This document shows positions 19,653 through 36,186 of a stretch of DNA of 50,713 bases, piece by piece. How positions within the stretch are numbered: the first letter of the stretch is position 1; the number at the start of each line of letters is the position of its first letter. The notes beneath the pieces are model-generated. The model did not search any database, was not told the origin of the DNA, and saw only the letters and a list, made by a program, of their open reading frames with translations. The DNA comes from Colwellia sp. (GTDB lineage Bacteria > Pseudomonadota > Gammaproteobacteria > Enterobacterales > Alteromonadaceae). The stretch lies in NCBI GenBank assembly GCA_022969175.1, contig JALJPB010000027.1, positions 1 through 50,713 of the forward strand. Reading direction: 5' to 3'. The translations under genes and the position numbers were made by a program.

Positions 19653-19761
19653 CTCTTACTCTTTATATTGGTTTAGTTAGCTGAAATTTTTTTAGCAAAA
19701 GCTCGTTCTTATAAATAACACTGGCATTTGAATCCCTTTATGTCCGTGTGTTCAGTATTTT

Positions 19762-19788
19762 GGACCTCCCCGTGAGGTCCTTTTTTTT
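19762..19788 (+). terminator. Rho-independent terminator (GGACCTC-cccgt-GAGGTCC-T8), 110 nt downstream of the polA stop
   Basis: Perfect 7-bp GC-rich stem followed by a T-run. Confidence 0.6.
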
Positions 19789-19983
19789 GCTAAAAATACA
19801 CAATATAGACAGTGTAAAGACAAGAAGAACAGTAAAATTGGTCTCTGCATTAAGTTGACAGTATTAATGATTGTAATGGATGGTTAACCCTTAACCCTAA
19901 CGACACACTTTGTGCTGTGAGTGTTGATAATAATCAGCGATTAACTGCAAAGCTCTTCTAGTGAGTACAAAGCAATATTGTAA

Positions 19984-20013
19984 TAAAATAAAATAAAATA
20001 AAATAAATTAAAT
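19984..20013. repeat. Simple (AAAAT)n microsatellite, about 5 units
   Basis: aaaataaaataaaataaaataaatt read directly. Confidence 0.6.
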
Positions 20014-20082
20014 AAAAGTGTAAGTTTTTGACCTTAGCCTTCACTAACACTATATAAATATTTAAAACAGGTCGGAAAAAAT

Positions 20083-20337
20083 ATGAGCATAACTTCACCA
20101 ACTTCACCAGCAAATATAAAGTCGAGTACGCAGCCTACTGAAAAAGCTATGCAGGGATTCTTAAAGATGCTGTCTTTTTATCTGCTTTCATTTACTTTTT
20201 GGATTGGGCTATTTATTAACAATGAAGGCCCTGGCGGTGTTGAATTACAACACTTGATATTGATGGGTGTTTGTCATGCGATGTTGATTTTCATACATTT
20301 CATAGGTGTGTTTCAAAGAGAAGAAGAAAATACTTAA
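20083..20337 (+). CDS. Hypothetical small membrane protein
   Basis: 84 aa; two hydrophobic segments; TTGACC-17-TATATA promoter-like sequence upstream; no recognisable family. Confidence 0.3.
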   Translation: MSITSPTSPANIKSSTQPTEKAMQGFLKMLSFYLLSFTFWIGLFINNEGPGGVELQHLILMGVCHAMLIFIHFIGVFQREEENT

Positions 20338-20474
20338 TCATCGCTAGTTAATCGCTAGTATCAAAAAGTGCCTTAGCATGTTTGATACAAGGGATATTTG
20401 GTATCTAGTCAAATTAACTGATAAGACTTTGTGTAATTAAATTACAATATGGTAAATTAATTACATTTTTACCT

Positions 20475-20503
20475 TTACAAGGTTAGAGTTATCACTCTAT
20501 AAT
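20475..20503 (+). promoter_or_regulatory. Near-consensus sigma-70 promoter TTACAA-N17-TATAAT
   Basis: -35 at 20475..20480, 17-nt spacer, perfect -10 at 20498..20503. Confidence 0.5.
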
Positions 20504-20509
20504 GCTCTT

Positions 20510-20597
20510 GTTCCCTAACGCGAACCTTGTTGTAATATTTTATTCTAGCTTTCCTCATAGCTAATACGCCGATAGCCTTGCTGTCGGCTTTTTTTTT
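20510..20597 (+). ncRNA. Candidate about 88-nt sRNA bracketed by the promoter at 20475 and an intrinsic terminator (GCCGATAGC-cttg-CTGTCGGC-T9)
   Basis: No ORF; promoter and terminator spacing define a discrete small transcript; not matched to a known sRNA family. Confidence 0.35.
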
Positions 20598-20684
20598 GCC
20601 TACAGGACGTAGGCAAGGGGCGTGAGCAGGAGCAGAAGCTTTGCCTACAGGAAGTAGGTAGGGCGAGAGCAGGAGGAGAAAGCT
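20598..20684 (+). repeat. Two tandem about 45-nt units, each starting with a hairpin GCCTAC-AGGA(c/a)-GTAGG followed by GGA-rich single-stranded sequence
   Basis: Unit 1 20598..20642, unit 2 20643..20684; AGGA sits in the hairpin loops; further GGA motifs (CAGGAG, CAGGAGGAG) in the linkers. Confidence 0.5.
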
Positions 20685-20932
20685 ACGGCTATTTATCGAA
20701 ATAAAGTGAAGTAAAAAATCCAAATGTTGCCATTAAATAACACCTTAAAATTTGAGAAATAACGTTTTAATTGTATTTATGCTGAGCATAGTTATGTTTA
20801 ATCAACAATTTTGAACTTGGTATGAAATTTAAATTATGGTGCTGAGACCAAATAGCTTGTAATTTTAAATCAAGTTCTATCGCTTTTTCATTCGATTCAT
20901 TTCTGATTGGATTATTACTCTTTATTTCTTGA

Positions 20933-21146
20933 GAAGAATTAGCGGCAGTTTCAAAAAAATCACCGCATCATAACGACTCAGTTCATCTTCCAAAGAGCTG
21001 TGCATGGTAGTAAAAAAATCCTGTTCAGGACCAGGCCAATAAGCAAGACCAGCTAAGCTTCCTCGGTCAGATAAAATTATACGGTTAGGGTGCATAGTAC
21101 GAACAGCATGCTCTAAGTGTTTTTGTAAATTTAAAATCGCAATTTA
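20933..21146 (-). pseudogene. 5'-truncated gene remnant (about 70 codons, no start codon), reading ...LEHAVRTMHPNRIILSDRGSLAGLAYWPGPEQDFFTTMHSSLEDELSRYDAVIF...
   Basis: Open frame between two stops without an in-frame start and RBS; flanked by repeats and non-coding DNA. Confidence 0.25.
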
Positions 21147-21248
21147 ATGAGCCATTGCGATAAAAAGTTGAAAGATTGTATTATCATAGCAGTATGGAAA
21201 GCGGTTAAGATTATTACCCATCAATAAAAGTGACGTTGAGGAAGTATT

Positions 21249-21473
21249 ATGACATTAGATACAGATGTAGGGAGTATAGAAAATATAGAAAAAGCATTAT
21301 GCCCAGTATGTCAAAACAACAACAATTGTGATGTAAAAAATAATGCCGGCTGCTGGTGTATGACCATAGATGTACCTGCCGCACTGATTGAAAGCCTTAA
21401 AAGTAGCGATAAAGATAAACGCTGTATTTGCCAAGCTTGCATTGAAAAATTTAAACTTGGCAAAAGTGTATAA
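21249..21473 (+). CDS. Cysteine-rich CWC-family small protein
   Basis: 74 aa; CPVC-x5-C...GCWCM...CICQAC cysteine pattern reminiscent of the Cys_rich_CWC family. Confidence 0.45.
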   Translation: MTLDTDVGSIENIEKALCPVCQNNNNCDVKNNAGCWCMTIDVPAALIESLKSSDKDKRCICQACIEKFKLGKSV

Positions 21474-21486
21474 GTTACACCGTTAG

Positions 21487-26041: not shown

Positions 26042-27796
26042 ATGAAAAAAATAATAACACTTCTTGCTACGGTTATATTACTAACCAGTTGTGCGGAACA
26101 TTCAGCGTCAGTTCAGCCTAAAACTGAGACACAAGCAGCTGAAAAGAAACCCAATATTCTACTCTTGGTTGCTGATGACACAGCTTTTGGCGATATCGGT
26201 GCTTATGGCTCAGAAGTTCATACCCCTAATATGAATAAAATTGCTGAAGCTGGGATTCGTTTTACTAATTTCCACGTATCTCCAGTTTGTTCAGTAACTC
26301 GTTCAATGCTTCTTACCGGTAACGATAATATTGAAGTGGGTCTAGGATCATTTGATTATTCTATTTATCCAGCGACAAGAGGAAAAAAAGGTTATGAAGG
26401 TTATCTCACTAAAAATGCAGTGACCATTTCTGAATTATTAAACGATGATGGTTATGAAGTCTATAAGTCAGGTAAATGGCATTTAGGTGGCGACGAAGCG
26501 GGTGGCAAGCCGCCTTTAGATTGGGGTTTCACTAAAGAGTTCGGTATTTTATCTGGAGGGTCTAATCATTGGAATAACTTAGCAATGACACCCGACTTTA
26601 AAGATCCCAATGGCCTTAATGTTAAAAGAAAAGAAGACTGGACCTTAAATGGCGAAGAATATGATCGCCCTGAAGGAATTTATTCTGGTGAGATATACAC
26701 TAATCAAATGTTAGAGTTTATCAAAGATGGCGCCAAAAAAAATAAACCATGGTTTGCTTATATGGCTTTTACTACCGCTCATTTCCCAGTACAAGCACCC
26801 AAAGATCTAATCATGAAGTATTATCCTAAATACCTAGAGCTAGGATACGCAGGATTAAAAAAATCTCGATATGAAAGCCTTAAAGCTGAAGGGTTAATTT
26901 CACATGAAGCGACAGAAGCACCGTTTAATAGCTTAACTAAACGATGGGAAAGTCTTTCACAAGAAAATAAAGAAAAACAAGCTAAAATAATGGCCACTTA
27001 TGCCGCTATGATTGAAGATCAAGACAATAGGATTGGTCAAATTTTAGCGTATTTAAAAGAGTCAGGTCAGTTAGACAATACACTAGTCATCTACATGACA
27101 GATAACGGCCCTGAAGGTTTTGAACCGACCAATCCAAAAACTGGCAACCCAGAAATGGCAAAATGGGTCGACACTCAATTTGATTCCTCTTTCGAAGCGA
27201 TTGGTACCGCCAACTCTGAAAATGTTATTGGTACCTCTTGGGCAAATGCTGCAACAGGCGGATTACAATGGTGGAAATGGTTTATTGGCGAAGGTGGCAC
27301 CCGTGTACCACTAATGATCGTTCCTCCTGGTGGCTTCAGTTCTGATTACGATCGAGCTGGTGAAAAATCAAATGCGGTGGTTTATGTGAAAGATGTTCCT
27401 ATGACCATATTAGAATATGCCAATGTTAAGCACCCAATGACTCAATACAAAAATAAAAAGGTCATACCGCCTAGTGGTATTAGCATCAAACCTTTCTTAG
27501 ATGGTCAGTCTGAAGTGGTAAGAACCGAGAAAGACTGGTGGGCATTTGAACTCTTTGGTAATGGTTACGTTATGCAAGGTGAGTTTAAAGCGATGAAAGT
27601 AAGAACAGGTATGTTTGGTGATGGACAATGGCATTTATATAATGTCGTTTCTGACCCATCTGAGTCTAAGCCACTAGAAATTAAGCAACCAGAAAAATTA
27701 GCCGCGATGATTGCCTTGTATAAAGGCTATGTTGTCAAAAATAATATCATAGAAGTAGATGCAAGTTGGAGTCCGTTCCAAGGCGCTAGTCAGTAA
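26042..27796 (+). CDS. Sulfatase-family (alkaline-phosphatase superfamily) lipoprotein with a non-canonical C-S-V-T-R active-site motif
   Basis: Lipobox LLTSC; PVCSVTRSMLLTGN aligns to the sulfatase signature P-[VL]-C-[ST]-P-S-R-x-x-LLTG with Val in place of Pro; GKWHLG motif; the ORF-track start at 26030 is TTG, ATG at 26042 preferred. Confidence 0.8.
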   Translation: MKKIITLLATVILLTSCAEHSASVQPKTETQAAEKKPNILLLVADDTAFGDIGAYGSEVHTPNMNKIAEAGIRFTNFHVSPVCSVTRSMLLTGNDNIEVGLGSFDYSIYPATRGKKGYEGYLTKNAVTISELLNDDGYEVYKSGKWHLGGDEAGGKPPLDWGFTKEFGILSGGSNHWNNLAMTPDFKDPNGLNVKRKEDWTLNGEEYDRPEGIYSGEIYTNQMLEFIKDGAKKNKPWFAYMAFTTAHFPVQAPKDLIMKYYPKYLELGYAGLKKSRYESLKAEGLISHEATEAPFNSLTKRWESLSQENKEKQAKIMATYAAMIEDQDNRIGQILAYLKESGQLDNTLVIYMTDNGPEGFEPTNPKTGNPEMAKWVDTQFDSSFEAIGTANSENVIGTSWANAATGGLQWWKWFIGEGGTRVPLMIVPPGGFSSDYDRAGEKSNAVVYVKDVPMTILEYANVKHPMTQYKNKKVIPPSGISIKPFLDGQSEVVRTEKDWWAFELFGNGYVMQGEFKAMKVRTGMFGDGQWHLYNVVSDPSESKPLEIKQPEKLAAMIALYKGYVVKNNIIEVDASWSPFQGASQ

Positions 27797-27816
27797 GTTA
27801 CTTTGATAAAAACTCA

Positions 27817-27845
27817 TTTACGGTCGTTAAAAAAACGACCGTAAA
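27817..27845. terminator. Bidirectional intrinsic terminator between convergent genes (TTTACGGTCG-ttaaaaaaa-CGACCGTAAA)
   Basis: Perfect 10-bp inverted repeat with an A/T-rich loop and flanks. Confidence 0.65.
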
Positions 27846-28017
27846 TCCCATCTAATACCAAACAGACTAATTAATTGATCACCTTCAGATGGTTGAAACA
27901 TCCATCTTCTGCAGTGTGCTCAATCCCAATAGCCAGCTATTGCTCAATCACACACCTTGAACTTGAATATTTATCCTCATTGAATTTTGATGACTTATTT
28001 AATCCGTCTGGTATAAA

Positions 28018-31000
28018 TCAATCGATATGCGTAGTCACTGCTTTATTATTCGACAACTCTCTACCAATTTTTTGTATTGCTGTTTGTGTCGAAGTTTTAC
28101 TTTCTTTAGATTCAACATTCAATGTTTTCAATGTCTCTATCATTTGTAAGTCGACCGATTTATTACTTTGCAGGGTAGTCACTAATGGTGTTATAAACCG
28201 CTCTAAATGATGTGCAAACACAGTAAGAGTATCTTCCAGTTCAGCCTTGTCGGGGTGTGCAACATTCACTTGTAGTTCAAGTGCACTAATGGCTTGGGTG
28301 AGTGTTTGTAAATCACTGGTGTTTTGTTTTGCATTCGTGTTGTTATTCTTGTCTTCTAATGAGCTGCCAATGTGGGTGAGCCCTTTTTGCAATAATGATA
28401 TTTGGCTAGCAATTACTGCCATAGGATCGTCACTATCACCAAGACTTTGATGACGTACAAAGTCTGCTTTGATTTGTTGCCAGCGGTTTAATTGCGCTTC
28501 GGTTTGGGTATTTCTTAGCTCCCCTAGTTTAAGTAAGTTTTCTTCAGCGCCCACCGTTAGCGTTTGGGCTTCTCCTCGATAATGATCAACAATCAGTTGC
28601 TCAACTTCTTCATCGGTCATCACAGGGACTACTTTTTCTGCCATTTTATTCATGTTTCGATAACTACCTTGCAGTTTGAATGGTGGTTCAGTTCGGTATT
28701 TATCATCTTGGGCGGCAGATGCTATATATTGTTCATTGGCTTTTAAAACCGTTTGTTGAATCTTACGAAGACGTTGAATCACGGCAATAATTTCATTAAT
28801 TTCTGCTTGAGAATAACTATGCTTTAATTCGGTAGCTGGTAGAGGTTCACCATCGGCCATTTTAACCAGTTGATACAGGTCATCCATGTCTCGGGTAGCT
28901 AAAGGTGCAATATAGGCGTTACTGGTTAAGCTGTTCTCTATAAAACTTAATGAAAACTCTTCTTCTCTACCACTTAAGGTGTCGCCTAAATTATAAATGT
29001 CGGCGCGGTTTGCGAGCATATCTGGAATGGTAAAGGCTTCACCTGATTCAGTGTATGGGTTACCTGCCATCACGACCGCGAATTTTTTACCACGCATGTC
29101 GTAAGTTTTGCTCTCACCATTCCATACCCCATCAACACGACGAGAGCCGTCACATAATGAAATAAATTTTTGTAAAAATTCAGGATTGGTATGCTGAATA
29201 TCATCAAGGTAGAGCATAACGTTATTACCCATTTCAAAGGATAAGTTTATTTTTTCAATTTCATTACGCGCTGTTGAATTACTGGCTTGTTCAGGGTCTA
29301 ACGATAATTGGTCATGACCTATCGAAGGGCAATTAATTTTAACAAAGGTCATACCTAGTTTGCTGGCAACATATTCGATTAATGTCGTTTTACCGTAACC
29401 CGGTGGTGAAATTAGTAATAATAAACCCATTAGATCTGAGCGTTTATTTTTGCCAGCTGAACCAATTTGTTTGGCTAAGTTAGTGCCGATAATTGGAAAA
29501 TAGACATCATTAATAAGCTTGTTTCTAACAAAAGAAGAAAGTGGGCTAGGTTTAAATTCTGCTAATTTTAACCGTTGTTTTTGTATGGTTAATACTTGCT
29601 GCTTTTGTTGGTGGAAATGGCTAAATGCCGGCACATGTTTATCCGAAAATTCACGTAATCGAGAAATAAAAGCTTGGTAACTAAAAGACAATTGTTGATT
29701 ATTAAGGCTTTTATGTTGGCCAAGTAAACCACTGACATTACAATCGGTATTTGCACTTGAAGGATAAAAAGTAAATGAACTTTCTAATGTCATTATTGTT
29801 GCCGCTTCAATGATTAGTTCATCTTCAAAATCCATTGATTGATGGCTAGCAAACGATTCCAACCAAGCGATATGTAATTGATATTTTTGCTCTAGCGATT
29901 TACAGGCAGATAAGGCAACCGTTACCTGTTCACTTAAGCTTTTATGGGTTAATTGTGTTTGTAATTGCCTAACAAGTTCTGTACTCGACTCTTTTACAAT
30001 AAAAGATAGTTTGTTATCGGAAAACTCTTGAATAAGATAGTCCGCAGCCAACGATAAATTACCTGATAACCACGGCTGCTCTTCAATAAAGTGGCTAAAG
30101 CCGACTATCAATTCTTGTGCTAATTGCTGGCGTAGTGAGGTTGAGCCAAAGGTTTTTTCCATAACATGCAAGTTATAACAGCGATTAAGCAAGTCAGTTT
30201 TCGCTTGTTCATCTACTATATTCGCTAGATAGATAACTGCAAGCCGACGTTCACTGGCGGCATAGGCTAATAAACCGACCGATTCTCGAATATCAAGCAA
30301 CTGACTGAGAATTAAGGTCGCATCTGCATCGTGAACACCTTTGTCGTAACCTTCTTGGTATCTAGGCTCTGCAGCTTTTTTAACAAGTTCAATCAGGGTA
30401 TTTTCTTTCGCCGCATTAACTAATTCATTAATAGCTGATGGACCTTTTGACTCGGCCTCAAACAACAAACTAGCTGCTAAATACTCGGCGCGGTAAACGG
30501 TGTCACTCTCTGATATAAGCGCTTGTTGCCATAAATATTCAGTGCCTTCAAATAGCTCTTTGGGCAAGGTTTCAAAGTAGTCGCTTCCACTGATGTGTAG
30601 CACCATGGAATTGTCGCGTGGTAATAGTGTTAATTCGAGCTTTTGTTTATTTACCGAGAACTGATGATCGCCAATTTTAACTAAGCTACCATCAGCAGAA
30701 TAGATATCTGTTTTATCTCTAAGCGCTCTGATACCTTGTTCTTTTGCATTTTTAACTTGTGCCTCAATATCATCGGCACGAACATTGTCGTCAAGCTCTC
30801 TTAATTGAGTTATCAGCTGACGCAGCTTGGTAACCATAGGATCGGCGGCAAAATAACTATTGAGTTTATCTTGACTTTCTATGCTTTGCGCCCGGCGATT
30901 TACCCCAGCTAAAATGCGATCTGCCGCGGTCATTAAATTTAGGCAACGACGCTGTTGAGCATCCATTAGTTGTTGTTTATGTTGCTCAAAGTTATCGTAA

Positions 31001-33252
31001 ATTTCATCACGTTTAGCTAAGATTTCATTATAAAACTCATCGTAATCGCTAAACTGACTTTCAAGATCTTCTAGCTGAATAAGTAATTGAGATAATTGTT
31101 GATCGCACGCTTGTGGTGAGTCACTGGCATTTAATGCACTGGTAACACTTTGACTTAGTAGCTTAAAGCGAGCGCCAAATTCGGCACGAGCTTCTTCACT
31201 GCCAACATTTTTTGCCGCAATGTCAGCATTGGCTTTAACGCGGTTGATTTGGCTAAAAATACTGGAGATATCTTCTAAAATTCTGGTACGTTGCCGGCTG
31301 TCTTCAATTTCTAGCGATAACATAGTGCGGTTCAGTAACTCTAATCCTGTCACTAACTCGGCAATTGAAGCTCTGATCGGCCTTAAAACGGTAATAGACT
31401 CTGCTGACTCAACGGCTTGGCTTAACTGGCTGATAGTGTCTTGATAGGGAGCTAGGGCACGGTCTTGTTGTAAAAAATCGGCTGTTGCTTGGCTATGGTT
31501 AAGTGAAAGTTGGTCTAACTCTTCAGCCATGCTTTCTATTGCTTTAATATCAACATAGCGCAGTTCTTTCAGTGAAATTAATTCCCCTTTAAAAACGGAA
31601 AGTGTCGTTAAATAATCAACATATTGCTGAGCACTATCAAATGCGGATGTGTTGGCTTCTTGTGATATTTGCTTAAGCTTTTCGTTTGCTTGAGACATTT
31701 TTTGATCTGAGCTTTTTTTAATACTAGCTACTTTTTCAAACTCATCAAGTACTAATTCAGAGGTAGCCACCACCTGCTTTATTGTCTCGTTAAGTGAGTT
31801 TAAGTGAGGATCAGTTAACCAATGATACTTGTCGAGTAATTGACTTGATTCTTTCACTAAGTCGTTAAAATGATACTCAGAGGGCTGTTTAACAGCAATT
31901 AGTTTAGCAATAGAATATAAATCAGAGATGCCCCTGACTAATTCTGGATTACCTATTTTGCCAAAAAAGCTATTATCACTGGGCTGTTGGCTAGCAAATT
32001 CTTCACTACAAAATGGCGTTTGCCAAATTTGCATGGCATGTACACGTGAAGGTTCTGTTTCTGCACTAAAGACCACAGCACGGCCATCAATATATAAGCT
32101 TTGTCCGTGACCATATATAGGATTTTGCAGGGTTCTGGTGATTAAGTTATAAGAAAATAAGGCATACTGCCCTTCATTAGGCTCATAAAAAATATAGAGA
32201 AAGTCTTCACCGTTAGGCGATTTAACAACGCGATGTAACTGTAAATCTTCGGCGCTGTCATCAAATCGCTTGTTTTCACCACTTTGTAAGTAATAGCCAC
32301 CGGGAAATATAATGCCATGATCTTCTGGTAATTGAATACAGGCATGTTCAATTGCATCTTGTCGAATTACTTGCTGAGTTTTGCAGTTAAAGATTAAATG
32401 ACGGGTTTTCTTTTCACGATAAGGCTTAATTTTTAATAAAATAAGTTCGCCAACTTTGGCGTATTGAATATCGGCATCATCTAAAGATTGATGTTCATCA
32501 TCGACCTTTTCAGAGTATATGCCTTTACCGTCTTGGGTATTGTTTTCTACTTTTAAGGTGATTGAACCACTTATTGCTTCAACAAAAAGTATATCAAATA
32601 AATTAAAATGTGGATGTTTGCCTTGTACTTGTTGCTCTCTTGAAACTTTATGCCATTCAAAATCAAAGTTTTCTGGAGCTTTAATATCACGTTCACCACG
32701 GTTATCAATGTAAGTTACTTTTTGGTTGGCATCTACGCCCCAACGAAATACTCTTACATCGTCAAGCCGTTCGCCTATTCTAAAAATAGCGAATACTTTA
32801 CTGCCCTGACGATAAACATGGGTGAGAAATGTTTTTTTATAATAGGTATAAAGTTCTTCAAAGTCGCGAACAAAATCAGCATCGGCTAAAAGACTTCCCT
32901 CATGAGGAAGGTCGATAATCTCAAATTCATCGCCGGTTTTATTTATTTTGTGCAGACTAAAAACGTCAGCAACAGTAATGTTACGTTTTAAGCCTAAAAA
33001 AACGTTATAACCAAAAAGTAAAGTATCGCCAATGGCTGCAATATCTCTGGCAACACAGTTATGCTCGGTGCGAACGCGAATTCGAGCATCAACTTGCATA
33101 TCAGTTGAACCAAATGTTGCTATTCGTTGCTCATTAAGTCCTTTGAGCTGACTATTTAACTCGCTACCTAAACTATTTAAACGGCGTTGAATTAATTCGT
33201 ATGAACCACCTTCAGCAACCGCTTGATTGGTGACATCTTCCTTATCGGTCAT
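28018..33252 (-). CDS. Giant (about 1744 aa) multidomain protein with an embedded MoxR-type AAA+ ATPase core
   Basis: Walker A LLISPPGYGKTTLIEY, Walker B VMLYLDDIQH, sensor-1 AVVMAGNPYTESGEAF, Arg in PDMLANRADIYNL (MoxR/AAA_3/AAA_5-like); about 450-aa beta-rich N-terminal region; about 550-aa coiled-coil region; about 350-aa C-terminal region. Start re-set to the second ATG (33252, GGAG RBS) of MEFYM. Confidence 0.8.
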   Translation of the reverse strand: MTDKEDVTNQAVAEGGSYELIQRRLNSLGSELNSQLKGLNEQRIATFGSTDMQVDARIRVRTEHNCVARDIAAIGDTLLFGYNVFLGLKRNITVADVFSLHKINKTGDEFEIIDLPHEGSLLADADFVRDFEELYTYYKKTFLTHVYRQGSKVFAIFRIGERLDDVRVFRWGVDANQKVTYIDNRGERDIKAPENFDFEWHKVSREQQVQGKHPHFNLFDILFVEAISGSITLKVENNTQDGKGIYSEKVDDEHQSLDDADIQYAKVGELILLKIKPYREKKTRHLIFNCKTQQVIRQDAIEHACIQLPEDHGIIFPGGYYLQSGENKRFDDSAEDLQLHRVVKSPNGEDFLYIFYEPNEGQYALFSYNLITRTLQNPIYGHGQSLYIDGRAVVFSAETEPSRVHAMQIWQTPFCSEEFASQQPSDNSFFGKIGNPELVRGISDLYSIAKLIAVKQPSEYHFNDLVKESSQLLDKYHWLTDPHLNSLNETIKQVVATSELVLDEFEKVASIKKSSDQKMSQANEKLKQISQEANTSAFDSAQQYVDYLTTLSVFKGELISLKELRYVDIKAIESMAEELDQLSLNHSQATADFLQQDRALAPYQDTISQLSQAVESAESITVLRPIRASIAELVTGLELLNRTMLSLEIEDSRQRTRILEDISSIFSQINRVKANADIAAKNVGSEEARAEFGARFKLLSQSVTSALNASDSPQACDQQLSQLLIQLEDLESQFSDYDEFYNEILAKRDEIYDNFEQHKQQLMDAQQRRCLNLMTAADRILAGVNRRAQSIESQDKLNSYFAADPMVTKLRQLITQLRELDDNVRADDIEAQVKNAKEQGIRALRDKTDIYSADGSLVKIGDHQFSVNKQKLELTLLPRDNSMVLHISGSDYFETLPKELFEGTEYLWQQALISESDTVYRAEYLAASLLFEAESKGPSAINELVNAAKENTLIELVKKAAEPRYQEGYDKGVHDADATLILSQLLDIRESVGLLAYAASERRLAVIYLANIVDEQAKTDLLNRCYNLHVMEKTFGSTSLRQQLAQELIVGFSHFIEEQPWLSGNLSLAADYLIQEFSDNKLSFIVKESSTELVRQLQTQLTHKSLSEQVTVALSACKSLEQKYQLHIAWLESFASHQSMDFEDELIIEAATIMTLESSFTFYPSSANTDCNVSGLLGQHKSLNNQQLSFSYQAFISRLREFSDKHVPAFSHFHQQKQQVLTIQKQRLKLAEFKPSPLSSFVRNKLINDVYFPIIGTNLAKQIGSAGKNKRSDLMGLLLLISPPGYGKTTLIEYVASKLGMTFVKINCPSIGHDQLSLDPEQASNSTARNEIEKINLSFEMGNNVMLYLDDIQHTNPEFLQKFISLCDGSRRVDGVWNGESKTYDMRGKKFAVVMAGNPYTESGEAFTIPDMLANRADIYNLGDTLSGREEEFSLSFIENSLTSNAYIAPLATRDMDDLYQLVKMADGEPLPATELKHSYSQAEINEIIAVIQRLRKIQQTVLKANEQYIASAAQDDKYRTEPPFKLQGSYRNMNKMAEKVVPVMTDEEVEQLIVDHYRGEAQTLTVGAEENLLKLGELRNTQTEAQLNRWQQIKADFVRHQSLGDSDDPMAVIASQISLLQKGLTHIGSSLEDKNNNTNAKQNTSDLQTLTQAISALELQVNVAHPDKAELEDTLTVFAHHLERFITPLVTTLQSNKSVDLQMIETLKTLNVESKESKTSTQTAIQKIGRELSNNKAVTTHID

Positions 33253-33341
33253 GTAAAACTCCATGATAATTGACGCCAGCCGCCTATTAACAGGCCGTTG
33301 GCTTTTACTTTTTAGTTAATATTATTGAATTGTTAACGAAA

Positions 33342-35324
33342 CTATTTAACGTTAGCGGTACTCTTGCCCGCTAAATTTAATAAACTAGCCAGCGCGCCCT
33401 TTTCAGAGTCATCAGCATTATTTAACGTTGATAATAGTTTAGCCATATTAACGTTTTTCAAGGTTTCACTTGATTGAGATGCACCAGAAAGTACACCATT
33501 GAGATCTTCCATGATGTTACGATCGCCATTAAGTTGATCTTTAAATAGCTTTTGCACTGTTTCGCTTTCATTGACTATTCCATCCAGAGACTTACCGACA
33601 GTAATCGATTTCATAAATTGATGTAAGAACTCACCATCGCCACCCATAATATTAATATTGGCATCTTGTAATGCTGTGCCTAATACTTCAGCTTGTTTTT
33701 CTGCTAAATCAACACTGTTGTTTAATTTTGCTAAAGTCAGCTCTCTTTCTTGATTTAAACGTAATCCGAAAGTTTCAAATTCTCGTGCCTGTTCAGACAT
33801 CGCATTTAATACGTCTTGTTTTTCACGCAAACCAGTGGCTTCAGCCAATGCTTTTTCTTCGATGCCTTTAGCTTCGGCAGTAAGTTTTAGCTCTAAGGTT
33901 TTAGCCTCGGCTTCTCCTTGTCTTTCGTAGGCATCAGCTTGAGCTAAAGTAATTTGAACTTCAGCCAACCCTGCAGAGGCAGCTTCAGCTTGATTACCTT
34001 CTGCTAAAATCTTTTTAGACTCAGCTTGTTTGCTGGCTGCTTTTAATTCAGCATCGGCAATGGTATGCATTTTTCGGGCAATATGTTCAGCGGCTTGTTC
34101 TTCCGCTTTTGCCGACTCAATGTCTTTGACTAGAGCTTCTTCCGCTTCAGCTTTTGCTCTAATGACTTGTTCATCTTTTAAACGATTAGCTTCTGATATC
34201 ACCCGTAAATCTTTAATTAACTCTTCTTCTACGGCAACACTTTTTTCTACTGAGATTCGTTCGCGTTGAACTTCAGCAATATTTTTACGCTCCACTTCAA
34301 GTGCTTTTTCTTTATTAATGCGCAGGATTTCAACTTCTTTTTCACGATCAATTGCTTCAACTTGGCGGGCGCGTTTTACCTTCTCTTCTTCAATAGCTAC
34401 TGCTCTTAATCTATTTTGTTCGGCAATATCGGCTTCACGTTGCTTATTTTGCTCCGCTACAGCAATGATTTGTTCAGTAGCAATGCGTGCTTGTTCAGAT
34501 TTACAGCGCTCTTCTTCAGCAATTTTTGCGGTTTCAGCTTCTTCACGCGCTTGGACCGTGGCAATTTCACGCTCTTGTTTGGCTTTAGCATCGGCAAGCT
34601 GGCGTTCTAATTCTAATGATTTTTCTTCCGCTTCAATATTTTGTCGCTTAATACGGATTTCTTCTTGACGTTTTAAGTCATTAGTTTCAACACTTTGTAC
34701 TGCAGTAAGTTCAGTAATTCGGCGGATACCTTCAGCATCCATAATATTATTAGGGTCTAAGTCATGAATAGAGGTTTGCTCTAAAAAATCAATGGCAACA
34801 TCTTCAAGCACATAACCTGATAAGTCTTGACCAATAACTTCTTTTATCTTATCTCTAAAGGTATCTCGTTGGGTAAATAACTCAGTAAAATTGAGCTGCT
34901 TACCCACAGTTTTAAGTGCTTCTGAAAATTTAGCTTCAAAAAGTTCTTGTAGCGTTTCTGGGTAAGATGAGCGATCACAACCCACTTGTTTTGCCACCCG
35001 TAAAATGTCTTCTTTGGTTTCATTAACTCGAATATAAAAAGTGATAATGATGTCAGCACGAATATTATCTTGGCAAATTAAACCTGAGCGGCCTTTTCTT
35101 TCAAGCATCATACGTTTAGTTGAAATATCCATAATTTCTTTTTTATGAATAATAGGAATAACCAGGCCACCAGTGGTACTTATTTCCGGTTCTGCTCTTA
35201 GTTTATTAATGATAAGCGCTTGGCCCTGCTCAACTTTGTGATAAAATTTTGCGACCATAATCAATAGTGAAAAAACGAATAATACGCCTACACCAATTGC
35301 GATATAAAGTGGTTCCATTACCAT
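33342..35324 (-). CDS. Flotillin-family SPFH/band-7 protein with long Ala/Glu/Lys-rich coiled coil (YqiK-like)
   Basis: N-terminal TM helix, SPFH domain (ALIINKLR...GGLVIPIIHK...), then about 350 aa of EA-rich heptads (AEAKAEEEAL...), as in YqiK/FloT; start re-set to the ATG at 35324 (AGAGGAAG RBS). Confidence 0.85.
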   Translation of the reverse strand: MVMEPLYIAIGVGVLFVFSLLIMVAKFYHKVEQGQALIINKLRAEPEISTTGGLVIPIIHKKEIMDISTKRMMLERKGRSGLICQDNIRADIIITFYIRVNETKEDILRVAKQVGCDRSSYPETLQELFEAKFSEALKTVGKQLNFTELFTQRDTFRDKIKEVIGQDLSGYVLEDVAIDFLEQTSIHDLDPNNIMDAEGIRRITELTAVQSVETNDLKRQEEIRIKRQNIEAEEKSLELERQLADAKAKQEREIATVQAREEAETAKIAEEERCKSEQARIATEQIIAVAEQNKQREADIAEQNRLRAVAIEEEKVKRARQVEAIDREKEVEILRINKEKALEVERKNIAEVQRERISVEKSVAVEEELIKDLRVISEANRLKDEQVIRAKAEAEEALVKDIESAKAEEQAAEHIARKMHTIADAELKAASKQAESKKILAEGNQAEAASAGLAEVQITLAQADAYERQGEAEAKTLELKLTAEAKGIEEKALAEATGLREKQDVLNAMSEQAREFETFGLRLNQERELTLAKLNNSVDLAEKQAEVLGTALQDANINIMGGDGEFLHQFMKSITVGKSLDGIVNESETVQKLFKDQLNGDRNIMEDLNGVLSGASQSSETLKNVNMAKLLSTLNNADDSEKGALASLLNLAGKSTANVK

Positions 35325-35426
35325 GTGTACTTCCTCTTTTTTTAAAACGGACTGCCACAACTGCCGTGACAATTTAAATAAAATTATTGTTAATGTTGTA
35401 AGTTAAGTTAGTTCTTATTGAATAAA

Positions 35427-36065
35427 TTAATGCGGGTAGGGCGCGATAATATAGGTATGGCTATCAGAGGTATATTCTATTAACAGCCCTTTATCTCCCT
35501 TGCTTAATGAATGTTGATCATCACAACGAACATCCAGTAAAATTTCAGCGCCTTCGTTAAAAACTCGTGCTTGACCAAAGCTGCCTGTTACTTTCCCTGT
35601 TACAACAGTGGCTTCACTGCCAACTAAATTCTGACTTGTTGTCGTTTCCACGCTTTTAAACATGCCTTTTAACGGTCTAATAATAACCGCCGTTATCGGA
35701 AGAGAAACTAAAAATACCACGAAGTCAGTTATTGCGCCCATTACATAATAAAGCCAGCCATCTGGCAGCCAGCTTAGTAAGTAAAACTGAAGATAAAAAC
35801 TGATTAACCAGCATATCAAAATGATAATGCTGATCACTAATGTAAAGGGAACACCTGTTAAACCAAAGGTGAGAAATAATCCGGTAAGGCCGCCAACATT
35901 TATATCTATATCGGCATCTATATCAGCGTCAACATCAATATCGCCAGCAAAGTCTAAATCGATTAAGCCTAACATACCGATAAGCCAGTAGATTACCACA
36001 ACGCCAAGCAACGTTGAGTAAATAACCGTTGGGAATTGGGAGGCAACGTTGAACAACTGATCCAT
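35427..36065 (-). CDS. NfeD-like/YqiJ-like inner-membrane protein with C-terminal OB-fold domain
   Basis: 212 aa; acidic DID repeat, four TM helices, C-terminal beta-rich domain (GSEATVVTGKVTG...RVFNEGAEILLDV); the gene immediately upstream of a flotillin mirrors E. coli yqiJ-yqiK. Confidence 0.6.
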   Translation of the reverse strand: MDQLFNVASQFPTVIYSTLLGVVVIYWLIGMLGLIDLDFAGDIDVDADIDADIDINVGGLTGLFLTFGLTGVPFTLVISIIILICWLISFYLQFYLLSWLPDGWLYYVMGAITDFVVFLVSLPITAVIIRPLKGMFKSVETTTSQNLVGSEATVVTGKVTGSFGQARVFNEGAEILLDVRCDDQHSLSKGDKGLLIEYTSDSHTYIIAPYPH

Positions 36066-36169
36066 ATTTCATCCTTAAAACTTTTCAACAATCATTGTTA
36101 AGCCATCTTTGTACTGACTGCTGGTATTGTTGATTTTTTATTATTAATTCTTATAATTACCATACGCCT

Positions 36170-36186
36170 TTGACATATTATGTCAA
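36170..36186. promoter_or_regulatory. Perfect 17-bp palindrome TTGACATA-T-TATGTCAA in the intergenic region between the yqiJ-like operon and the TonB-dependent receptor
   Basis: 8-bp arms exact reverse complements; candidate dimeric regulator operator. Confidence 0.4.

Follow-up and report, generated by a model that had tools for sequence, protein, structure and literature searches.

A giant AAA+ protein encoded in a conserved operon with a flotillin/YqiJ pair in Colwellia sp. and related loci

What does a giant AAA+ ATPase do when its gene follows those of a flotillin and its small membrane partner? This question is raised by a Colwellia sp. contig (50,713 nucleotides, referred to below as the window), for which a three-gene minus-strand operon had been proposed. 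ORF reading confirmed three collinear minus-strand ORFs at 35427–36065 (212 aa), 33342–35372 (676 aa if read from a TTG codon) and 28018–33264 (1748 aa if read from the first ATG). The likely true start of the flotillin gene is ATG 35324 (660 aa), with AGAGGAAG located 7 nt upstream, and that of the giant gene is ATG 33252 (1744 aa), which is preceded by GGAG; both revised starts agree with the NCBI models for identical proteins. Consequently, the intergenic gaps amount to about 102 and 89 nt instead of 54 and 77 nt, which corrects the 77-nt spacing initially given for the flotillin and giant genes. A consensus scan found no minus-strand terminator-like site in either gap, as had been noted for the gap before the giant gene. 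The trio as a whole is bracketed by one sigma-70-like promoter candidate (TTGACA-16-TATGGT, 36159–36186, minus strand, 10/12 consensus matches, ~94 nt 5' of the first gene) and one terminator-like hairpin with a 13-bp stem and a T-run (27816–27846, minus strand, ~170 nt past the giant stop codon). Both sites are candidates defined by consensus matches only; judged from these signals, a single transcription unit is plausible. Scans of the window for tRNAs and Rfam families gave no matches.

The first gene (35427–36065, minus strand) encodes a 212-aa membrane protein, probably of the YqiJ/DUF1449 family, assigned on the basis of the ORF, hydropathy, a family alignment and hhalign against YqiJ. 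Three hydrophobic segments (residues 11–41, 60–100 and 104–135) are followed by a soluble C-terminal part of 80 aa, and the protein also has a loop rich in Asp and, at its C-terminus, a beta-rich domain of the NfeD/OB-like type. Its size and architecture are those of YqiJ/DUF1449 proteins (~210 aa, multi-TM N-terminal part, C-terminal OB-type domain), and the pattern LVG...V..G.A...GA..L.VR...GD is conserved in the family alignment. The family profile aligned to E. coli YqiJ over 141 columns with an hhalign probability of 94.9% (E = 4e-8); pairwise BLASTP against the same protein reached only E = 0.003. No Pfam match was obtained even at E ≤ 10, likewise none in NCBIfam or PADLOC, and sequence and profile searches of the PDB gave no match beyond noise. 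NCBI names an identical protein "YqiJ family protein", and the earlier description of this gene as YqiJ/NfeD-like is probably right in essence.

The second gene (33342–35324, minus strand) encodes a YqiK-type flotillin of 660 aa, as indicated by BLASTP and hhalign against YqiK and by the ribosome-binding site before ATG 35324. Comparison with E. coli YqiK yielded 29% identity over 453 aa in BLASTP (E = 8e-45) and an hhalign probability of 99.9%, in agreement with the identity originally assigned. The protein shows the features of the flotillin/YqiK class, with an N-terminal membrane anchor (one hydrophobic segment, residues 1–31, by hydropathy), SPFH homology, a long E/A-rich coiled coil and an adjoining YqiJ-type upstream partner. 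Its alignment to YqiK spans residues 200–440 of EA-rich, heptad-like sequence, and a conservation profile of 71 orthologs showed conservation up to about residue 590, followed by a variable tail. As already noticed, the flotillin is longer than typical YqiK, exceeding the E. coli protein by ~100 aa. Searches against Pfam, NCBIfam and PADLOC gave no match even at E ≤ 10, and sequence and profile searches of the PDB returned generic or noise matches only; PF01145 matches some of the orthologs. By analogy, the flotillin would assemble large membrane-attached oligomeric cages or microdomains.

The third gene (28018–33252, minus strand) encodes the giant AAA+ protein of 1744 aa, which bears the database name "DNA repair ATPase" and was analyzed on the basis of its ORF, Pfam matches and AF2 models (mean pLDDT 83.3 and 84.9). 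Hydropathy revealed no hydrophobic segment, and by its sequence the protein is soluble. Pfam matches comprise DUF3686 (E = 7.6e-192), DUF7902 (E = 5e-21) as well as AAA and AAA_5 (AAA+ E = 2e-9); this corresponds to the DUF3686 family, in which PF12458 is followed by DUF7902 and one AAA+ module within ~1,600–2,000 aa. Homologs fall into 590 clusters at 50% identity (E ≤ 1e-10), and sequence and profile searches of the PDB gave generic P-loop matches only. The original prediction regarded the AAA+ core as the only recognisable module and suggested a fold check of the N-terminal 450 aa. That view is outdated, as this region corresponds to Pfam DUF3686 and, in the AF2 model and Foldseek searches, to a predicted beta-propeller (residues 35–481, 31822–33162, minus strand; residue numbers of sub-features follow the 1748-aa ORF starting at 33264). 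The propeller is preceded by an N-terminal helix (8–51), has ~26 strands over residues 57–415 in the predicted model, and matches WD40, prolyl-oligopeptidase, clathrin and Vps18 propellers with Foldseek E-values of 1e-7 to 1e-4. It is followed by a long helical/coiled-coil stalk (residues 433–853, 30706–31968, minus strand), delineated by DSSP of the model and by Pfam, with ~400 aa of long helices including DUF7902 (603–682). In its combination of propeller and helical arm, the protein bears a superficial likeness to clathrin, IFT-A and Vps18, in which a propeller is joined to helical repeats.

Models and alignments place a small beta domain (862–899) and a helical middle domain (~925–1240) behind the stalk (29545–30681, minus strand). 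Three family alignments share the invariant residues E919, R925, G976, H978 and D981 and an EGYxKGVHDxDA motif in this part, and the invariant His/Asp/Glu residues hint at a second activity, which would lie outside the scaffold-remodelling model presented below. The single AAA+ module (residues ~1249–1520, 28705–29520, minus strand) carries Walker A SPPGYGKTT, Walker B LYLDDIQH, sensor-1 AGNPYT, the PDMLANR arginine and GSYRN (motif numbering refers to the P0001 protein; 4 has to be added for the 1748-aa ORF). According to the alignments, the Walker B motif ends in Asp-Asp, not Asp-Glu, throughout the family, so the module could be a slow switch instead of a processive motor. Foldseek found the MoxR-class proteins CbbQ/NorQ as its nearest folds, and the module has the characteristics of the AAA_5/helix-2-insert group; in the predicted structure, it is closest to the MoxR/midasin/dynein group, which bears out the proposal of a 1744-aa protein with a MoxR-like core. 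Fold searches with the whole model were dominated by matches to the propeller and the AAA+ module and yielded no assignment for the middle domain (residues ~860–1240).

The operon itself is already known, and its discovery is not new. The original prediction took it for an undescribed system, but Ravi et al. (2024, mSystems, PMC11237479; bioRxiv 2020) described exactly this flotillin-YqiJ-AAA+ operon by comparative genomics. In their account (PMC11237479), the operon often follows CesT/Tir(YjfI)-PspA and sometimes occurs with a PLD hydrolase, "abbreviated" forms are "more widely distributed", a link to PspA/ESCRT-III-like membrane dynamics is drawn, and Dokdonia donghaensis ANH61663.1 serves as an example. 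The description comprises one paragraph and includes no structure, AAA+ clade, linkage statistics or experiment. In the window trio, the three protein architectures and their order are the same, and related loci repeat the extensions by DUF2170/YjfI, PspA and PLD. Unlike the full form, the window lacks the CesT/Tir(YjfI)-PspA dyad and the PLD gene (no PspA, YjfI, PLD or TelA gene lies within its 50 kb), and therefore represents the abbreviated form; nothing essential differs. Our literature search found no experimental study of any trio member and nothing on DUF3686/PF12458 or on a "DNA repair ATPase" with flotillin. Papers on YqiK/DUF1449 deal with the canonical two-gene pair only, and the SPFH proteins of P. 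aeruginosa were surveyed in 2026 with no mention of an ATPase partner. New in the present work are linkage statistics, a domain map of high confidence, the MoxR/midasin/dynein placement of the AAA+ module, and variants extended by TelA, a Zn-ribbon ORF and yjfKLMC-like genes.

To what extent are the three genes linked? We compared 80 genome loci from Gamma-, Beta- and Zetaproteobacteria, Myxococcota, Actinomycetota and one MAG labelled Clostridia, ~76 of which had enough upstream DNA to judge gene order. In all ~76 loci, the small gene, the flotillin gene and the giant gene follow each other in this order on one strand. The order also holds for three metagenomic relatives with no more than 27–29% identity and for two annotated plasmid loci of Pseudomonas and Hymenobacter (Bacteroidota); Deinococcus plasmids likewise carry a homolog of the giant gene. 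In Actinomycetota, the ORFs of the trio abut or overlap by 1–4 nt. The flanking genes vary between genera, and in a few loci the flotillin–giant gap contains sporadic insertions (HepT, PD-(D/E)XK mobile or toxin genes), with no conserved fourth gene. From locus to locus, the sequence identities of the three proteins correlate only weakly (Spearman 0.23–0.42), and these values were set aside as evidence. The trio is a genuine and strongly conserved module with strict linkage across phyla: the objection that homologs of the giant gene might mostly occur apart from SPFH/NfeD genes, which would have made the arrangement a coincidence, fails in every locus with readable order. Carriers of the operon that can be cultured are found among Pseudomonas, Stenotrophomonas, Xenorhabdus, Proteus, Myxococcus and actinomycetes.

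The two-gene core is homologous (for the small protein, probably so) to E. coli YqiJ-YqiK and B. subtilis YuaF-FloT, where a small multi-TM/OB protein is likewise followed by a flotillin (PMC2636767). In contrast to the trio, the canonical pairs of E. coli and S. oneidensis (SO1376/1377) end with a terminator and lack an AAA+ gene. The trio flotillin, in turn, differs from YqiK not only in sequence and length, but forms part of its own highly conserved orthologous group, which always accompanies the giant gene at the usable loci.

Beyond the trio, there is a recurrent fusion with PspA, YjfI, PLD and TelA genes. DUF2170(YjfI) and PspA_IM30 genes are located beside the small gene in 31 loci (29 directly upstream on the same strand, two divergent), a PLDc_2 gene follows the giant gene in at least 13 loci, and TelA is present in 10. 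On the well-studied plasmid pQBR103, a yjfJKLMC-like set (PspA, rhomboid, DUF2491, DUF350, DUF1190 and a glutathionylspermidine-synthase-like protein) is joined directly to the trio, and a further extended variant carries the Zn-ribbon ORF. Bare trios account for more than half of the loci; PspA is therefore not an obligatory partner, and either the flotillin cage or another target may be the substrate. In B. subtilis, an SPFH protein is reported to be required for PspA localisation (PMC8581546).

Based on this context, the operon likely serves to remodel a sub-membrane flotillin/PspA scaffold, driven by ATP, during envelope stress, and we assign a probability of roughly 0.55 to the reading of the window trio as an abbreviated flotillin-YqiJ-AAA+ operon with this function. 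By analogy to the SPFH-NfeD and flotillin cages whose structures are solved, the flotillin and the 3-TM YqiJ-like protein would together build an SPFH cage or patch that sits on the inner membrane and faces the cytoplasm. The giant protein would oligomerise via its single MoxR/dynein-like AAA+ module and could reach the scaffold by means of its beta-propeller and long coiled-coil arm. Under envelope stress, ATP hydrolysis might then be spent on building, reshaping or stripping the flotillin scaffold, PspA/ESCRT-III-like polymers or the clients of these, a role analogous to that of Vps4 acting on ESCRT-III; in genomes like that of the window, any PspA partner would be encoded elsewhere. The physical interaction of the three products, their oligomeric state, the substrate and the stress trigger are what we infer in this model. 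Support comes from Ravi et al. (PMC11237479), who independently arrived at the same functional inference. Of the two functions originally suggested, the membrane-anchored AAA+ remodelling machine is the one best supported by context, while no positive evidence was obtained for a defence-like machine.

The operon would bear on how flotillin cages and PspA/Vipp1 (ESCRT-III-type) polymers are assembled and taken apart in bacteria; for bacterial PspA, a Vps4-like regulator is not known according to a 2025 review (PMC7619361). With a dedicated flotillin/YqiJ pair at every readable locus and repeated fusions to the PspA operon, the trio is a concrete and genetically tractable candidate. The resemblance to Vps4/CdvC-ESCRT-III is a functional analogy only: in both cases, an AAA+ ATPase is genomically coupled to a polymer of the ESCRT-III superfamily, with PspA adjacent in the 31 loci mentioned above. 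Unlike Vps4/CdvC, the giant protein belongs to a different AAA+ clade and lacks an MIT domain, its coupling to PspA is facultative, and PspA is a putative substrate. As a tentative extension, which we regard as possible at best, the giant protein could be the missing ATP-driven regulator of bacterial sub-membrane scaffolds, i.e. a Vps4-like analogue built on a MoxR/dynein-type ring, whose propeller and helical arm dismantle or reshape flotillin cages and PspA/ESCRT-III polymers and whose His/Asp/Glu middle domain adds a second catalytic step.

Among the alternatives to scaffold remodelling, SPFH-caged protein quality control fares best, but we consider it rather unlikely. Here, the flotillin/YqiJ cage would position the AAA+ ring, and the ATPase would unfold or extract damaged membrane-associated clients, as modelled on HflK/C for FtsH and prohibitin for the m-AAA protease. 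Such partnerships of SPFH scaffolds with membrane AAA+ ATPases are established, and S. aureus FloA-NfeD is described as stabilising unfolded proteins under stress; the trio would share with HflK/C-FtsH and prohibitin-m-AAA the functional coupling of an SPFH scaffold to an AAA+ ATPase at a membrane. Beta-propellers commonly bind substrates or adaptors, and the lack of an adjacent PspA gene in more than half of the loci also fits. However, FtsH is embedded in the membrane, is a member of the classical AAA clade and includes a protease domain, whereas the giant protein is soluble and MoxR/dynein-like, with propeller and coiled coil, and shares homology with FtsH only in the AAA+ fold. It has no protease domain, no protease gene occurs among the conserved neighbours, and AAA+ modules of the MoxR/dynein type do not typically act as threading unfoldases. 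Moreover, the recurrent links to PspA, YjfI, PLD and TelA point to the membrane and not to protein clients.

Less probable still is an anti-phage or abortive infection system, in which flotillin/YqiJ senses or executes membrane damage, the AAA+ protein acts as a switch and PLD, where present, as the effector. Conflict systems commonly contain large STAND/AAA+ proteins that bear propellers. The patchy distribution (at least 585 of ~185,000 species genomes), the genus-specific flanks, the PLD-family gene at some loci and the mobile or toxin genes inside a few operons would be consistent with such a function. On the other hand, none of the three proteins has a PADLOC-DB v2 match at E ≤ 0.01, no phage copies were found, and plasmid copies occur in just 13 of 72,556 plasmid records, mostly megaplasmids or chromids. 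A Pfam scan of ten genes flanking the trio in the window identified a sulfatase, an AraC regulator, a TonB receptor and DsbA, which are housekeeping-type neighbours and not a defence island. The conserved partners (PspA, YjfI, TelA, yjfKLMC) are stress-response genes, and the three proteins are highly conserved across phyla, unlike fast-evolving defence genes.

We see very little prospect for a MoxR-type chaperone that acts with a VWA partner in cofactor insertion or complex maturation beside an incidental SPFH pair. The CbbQ/NorQ-like fold, the AAA_5 matches and the JGI label "MoxR-like ATPase" on homologs speak for it. However, the invariable presence of the SPFH/YqiJ pair in the usable loci shows that the pair is not incidental, and, as originally noted, no VWA gene accompanies the giant gene, neither among the conserved neighbours of the 80 loci nor among the ten Pfam-scanned window genes. 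In contrast to RavA-ViaA, CbbQ-CbbO and NorQ-NorD, and to the compact MoxR class in general (~300–500 aa with a VWA partner nearby), the giant protein is ~5 times the size of a MoxR ATPase, with ~1,250 additional N-terminal residues and an Asp-Asp Walker B, and its profile similarity to RavA is negligible (hhalign probability 9%). Equally improbable is a DNA-repair ATPase that merely adjoins membrane genes: it draws on the Pfam description of DUF3686, the NCBI product name, a weak P-loop similarity to RuvB and the occurrence of MCM and RuvB among the Foldseek matches, and the name "DNA repair ATPase", which has spread to thousands of database proteins, is without support.

The window corresponds to a metagenome-assembled contig of Colwellia sp. 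and carries three consecutive minus-strand ORFs, namely a small, probably YqiJ-type gene (35427-36065), a flotillin gene (33342-35372) and a giant gene (28018-33264) whose product is 100% identical to a database protein named 'DNA repair ATPase'. Shorter starts are favoured for two of them by upstream ribosome-binding sites, at ATG 35324 for the flotillin (660 aa; AGAGGAAG) and at ATG 33252 for the giant protein (1744 aa; GGAG), and the NCBI gene models concur with both. A consensus scan located a promoter-like TTGACA-16-TATGGT upstream of the small gene (36186-36159), a terminator-like 13-bp hairpin with a T-run after the giant gene (27846-27816) and no minus-strand terminator-like site in either intergenic gap; as pattern matches, these signals are suggestive but fall short of proof for one transcript. 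The hairpin sits between the giant gene and a convergent plus-strand sulfatase gene ending at 27796, and could be a bidirectional terminator. Besides the sulfatase, the neighbours include an AraC-type regulator, a TonB-dependent receptor and DsbA. Further away, about 1.8 kb (19653-21486) contain no ORF of at least 100 aa (longest 84 aa) and gave no hit in tRNA or Rfam scans.

The middle protein matched neither Pfam models nor PDB sequences. Based on sequence comparison, it is nevertheless a YqiK-type flotillin: it shares 29% identity with E. coli YqiK over 453 aligned residues (E=8e-45), its family profile matches YqiK with 99.9% probability, and some orthologs, named flotillin or SPFH, match PF01145. 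It has one hydrophobic segment, at the N-terminus, and exceeds YqiK by about 100 residues, in line with the original prediction. The small protein combines three hydrophobic segments with an Asp-rich loop and a C-terminus whose last 80 residues are beta-rich. Profile comparison links its family to E. coli YqiJ (94.9% probability, E=4e-8), pairwise similarity is weak, and the identical sequence is annotated 'YqiJ family protein' at NCBI.

At least 585 species genomes encode relatives of the giant protein, identified with a profile of 27 diverse homologs; the N-terminal 686 residues of the giant protein matched 590 clusters at 50% identity (E<=1e-10). The window's three proteins were searched against six-frame ORFs of 80 fetched loci. 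All loci with at least about 2.5 kb of upstream DNA showed the order small, flotillin, giant on one strand; among the incomplete loci, four lacked upstream DNA and three were cut within the small gene. The trio spans Gamma-, Beta- and Zetaproteobacteria, Myxococcota, Actinomycetota (with ORFs abutting or overlapping by 1-4 nt) and one MAG labelled Clostridia. Three metagenomic relatives with just 27-29% identity across the N-terminal region share this arrangement, and so do copies on pQBR103, a megaplasmid of Pseudomonas fluorescens SBW25, and on a plasmid of Hymenobacter (Bacteroidota). The flanking genes vary from genus to genus. Therefore, in the loci examined the giant gene clearly travels with the SPFH/NfeD pair, as had been proposed, and coincidental adjacency is excluded by this synteny.

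In a few genomes, sporadic insertions separate the flotillin and giant genes, so this junction tolerates interruption. These comprise two tandem PD-(D/E)XK_2 'transposase' (Rpn-like) genes (locus L032, 6024-7924), an alpha/beta hydrolase, NYN-domain protein and HepT-like toxin (L037, 4503-7944) and a PDDEXK_5-like ORF (L078, 4924-5469).

Clustering of neighbour genes revealed recurrent additions to the trio. DUF2170 (YjfI) and PspA/IM30 genes (Pfam E=2.5e-50 and 2e-49) adjoin the small gene in 31 loci, 29 upstream on the same strand and two divergent, and a PLDc_2 gene (E=1.9e-31) follows the giant gene in at least 13 loci. In 10 Xanthomonadales loci (L022-L044, L070; Lysobacter, Stenotrophomonas, Xanthomonas, Luteimonas and Thermomonas), a TelA gene (toxic anion resistance; E=2.5e-70 in L044) is located 3' of the giant gene and collinear with it, at about 13.5-15.2 kb in each locus. 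A TFIIB-type zinc ribbon ORF of about 180 aa (PF13453, E=3e-8) between the flotillin and giant genes in about five loci, from some Burkholderiales and one Pseudomonas MAG (L046 7372-7938, L054 7390-7923, L071 7388-7936, L076 7191-7562), may be a lineage-specific fourth component. On pQBR103 (L087, NC_009444.1, 1-12205), PspA/IM30, rhomboid protease, DUF2491, DUF350, DUF1190 and glutathionylspermidine-synthase-family genes, a yjfJKLMC-like set, lie directly 5' of the trio on the same strand, and an MvaT/MvaU-type gene follows it. In Hymenobacter, 'chaperone Tir' and PspA precede the trio, with a divergent LexA-family regulator. None of the DUF2170/YjfI, PspA, PLD, TelA, zinc ribbon or yjfKLMC-like genes occurs within the 50-kb window.

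The giant protein is soluble and matches Pfam DUF3686 (E=7.6e-192), DUF7902, AAA and AAA_5. Two AlphaFold2 models, each from 45-sequence alignments, covered residues 1-1000 (mean pLDDT 83.3) and 780-1748 (mean pLDDT 84.9, pTM 0.73) in the numbering of the 1748-aa ORF. They predict an N-terminal helix (8-51), a beta-propeller of about 26 strands (57-415), very long helices (433-853), a small beta domain (862-899), a helical domain (~925-1240), a single AAA+ module (~1249-1520), a helical region (~1520-1640) and a low-confidence tail of about 110 residues. In Foldseek searches, the N-terminal part hit propellers of WD40, prolyl-oligopeptidase, clathrin, IFT-A and Vps18 type, at E 1e-7 to 1e-4 and with low TM-scores. 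The C-terminal model matched MCM, RuvB and MoxR-class CbbQ/NorQ at similar E-values, and because NorQ/CbbQ gave the top target-normalised TM-scores (0.55-0.58), the predicted MoxR-like core is supported at the fold level by a modest margin. At the sequence level, the profile hardly registers E. coli RavA (9% probability), and its match to RuvB is confined to Walker A-B. The family-invariant AAA+ motifs are SPPGYGKTT, LYLDDIQH, AGNPYT, PDMLANR and GSYRN. The Walker B of the AAA+ module (window 28705-29520) thus reads hhhhDD instead of the usual Asp-Glu, which, judged from the motif, might confer slow, switch-like ATP turnover. The middle domain (window 29545-30681, residues ~862-1240) carries the motif EGYxKGVHDxDA, and E919, R925, G976, H978 and D981 are invariant in 45 sequences from several phyla. 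Searches for a fold or family assignment of this domain returned none; it may hold a second active or interaction site.

We found no mention of DUF3686 (PF12458) in the literature. Ravi et al. 2024 (mSystems, PMC11237479; bioRxiv 2020) described an operon of a CesT/Tir-PspA dyad with three further proteins, among them a 3-TM YqiJ/YuaF protein, and sometimes a PLD hydrolase. The authors state that abbreviated operons, which lack the dyad, have the wider distribution and might work with PspA encoded elsewhere. Gene order in their Table S3 example, from Dokdonia donghaensis, is identical to that in the window. The window trio is thus an instance of a system already described, purely in silico; the three-gene module seen in the original prediction is real and membrane remodelling plausible, but the system is not undescribed. 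On pQBR103, PspA operons of two classes are fused, which Ravi et al. kept separate. A literature search found no experimental work on the flotillin-YqiJ-AAA+ operon.

Of the readings considered, a module that remodels a scaffold beneath the membrane has the best support. By analogy with QmcA-YbbJ, HflK/C and flotillin cages, for which solved structures are reported, the YqiJ-like protein and the flotillin would form an SPFH assembly facing the cytoplasm. The soluble ATPase would dock via its propeller and coiled-coil arm and, when the envelope is stressed, spend ATP on building up or taking apart the scaffold, PspA polymers or their clients. Arguments for this reading are the strict linkage of the trio, the repeated fusion of PspA, YjfI, TelA and PLD genes to it, and the SPFH-PspA connection reported in B. 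subtilis. Caveats are that no PspA gene adjoins the trio in more than half of the loci, the Asp-Asp Walker B and the unexplained invariant middle-domain residues. An SPFH-caged quality-control unfoldase resembling HflKC-FtsH is also plausible, but the giant protein has no protease domain and the loci no conserved protease gene. Anti-phage defence, raised earlier as an alternative, fits the patchy distribution and the PLD gene in some loci; it has a low probability given no PADLOC match, no phage copy, few plasmid copies and a window context that is not a defence island. A role in DNA repair is very unlikely, with no source other than the database name. A MoxR-VWA chaperone fails because, as anticipated, no VWA partner is present.

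The trio is a good candidate for experiments on the missing ATPase that would drive bacterial flotillin/PspA dynamics. Two PLSDB 'plasmids' of about 4.08 Mb (NZ_OL790811.1, NZ_OL790812.1), evidently Proteus mirabilis chromosomes, encode a giant homolog with 51.5% identity, making P. mirabilis a possible experimental host.
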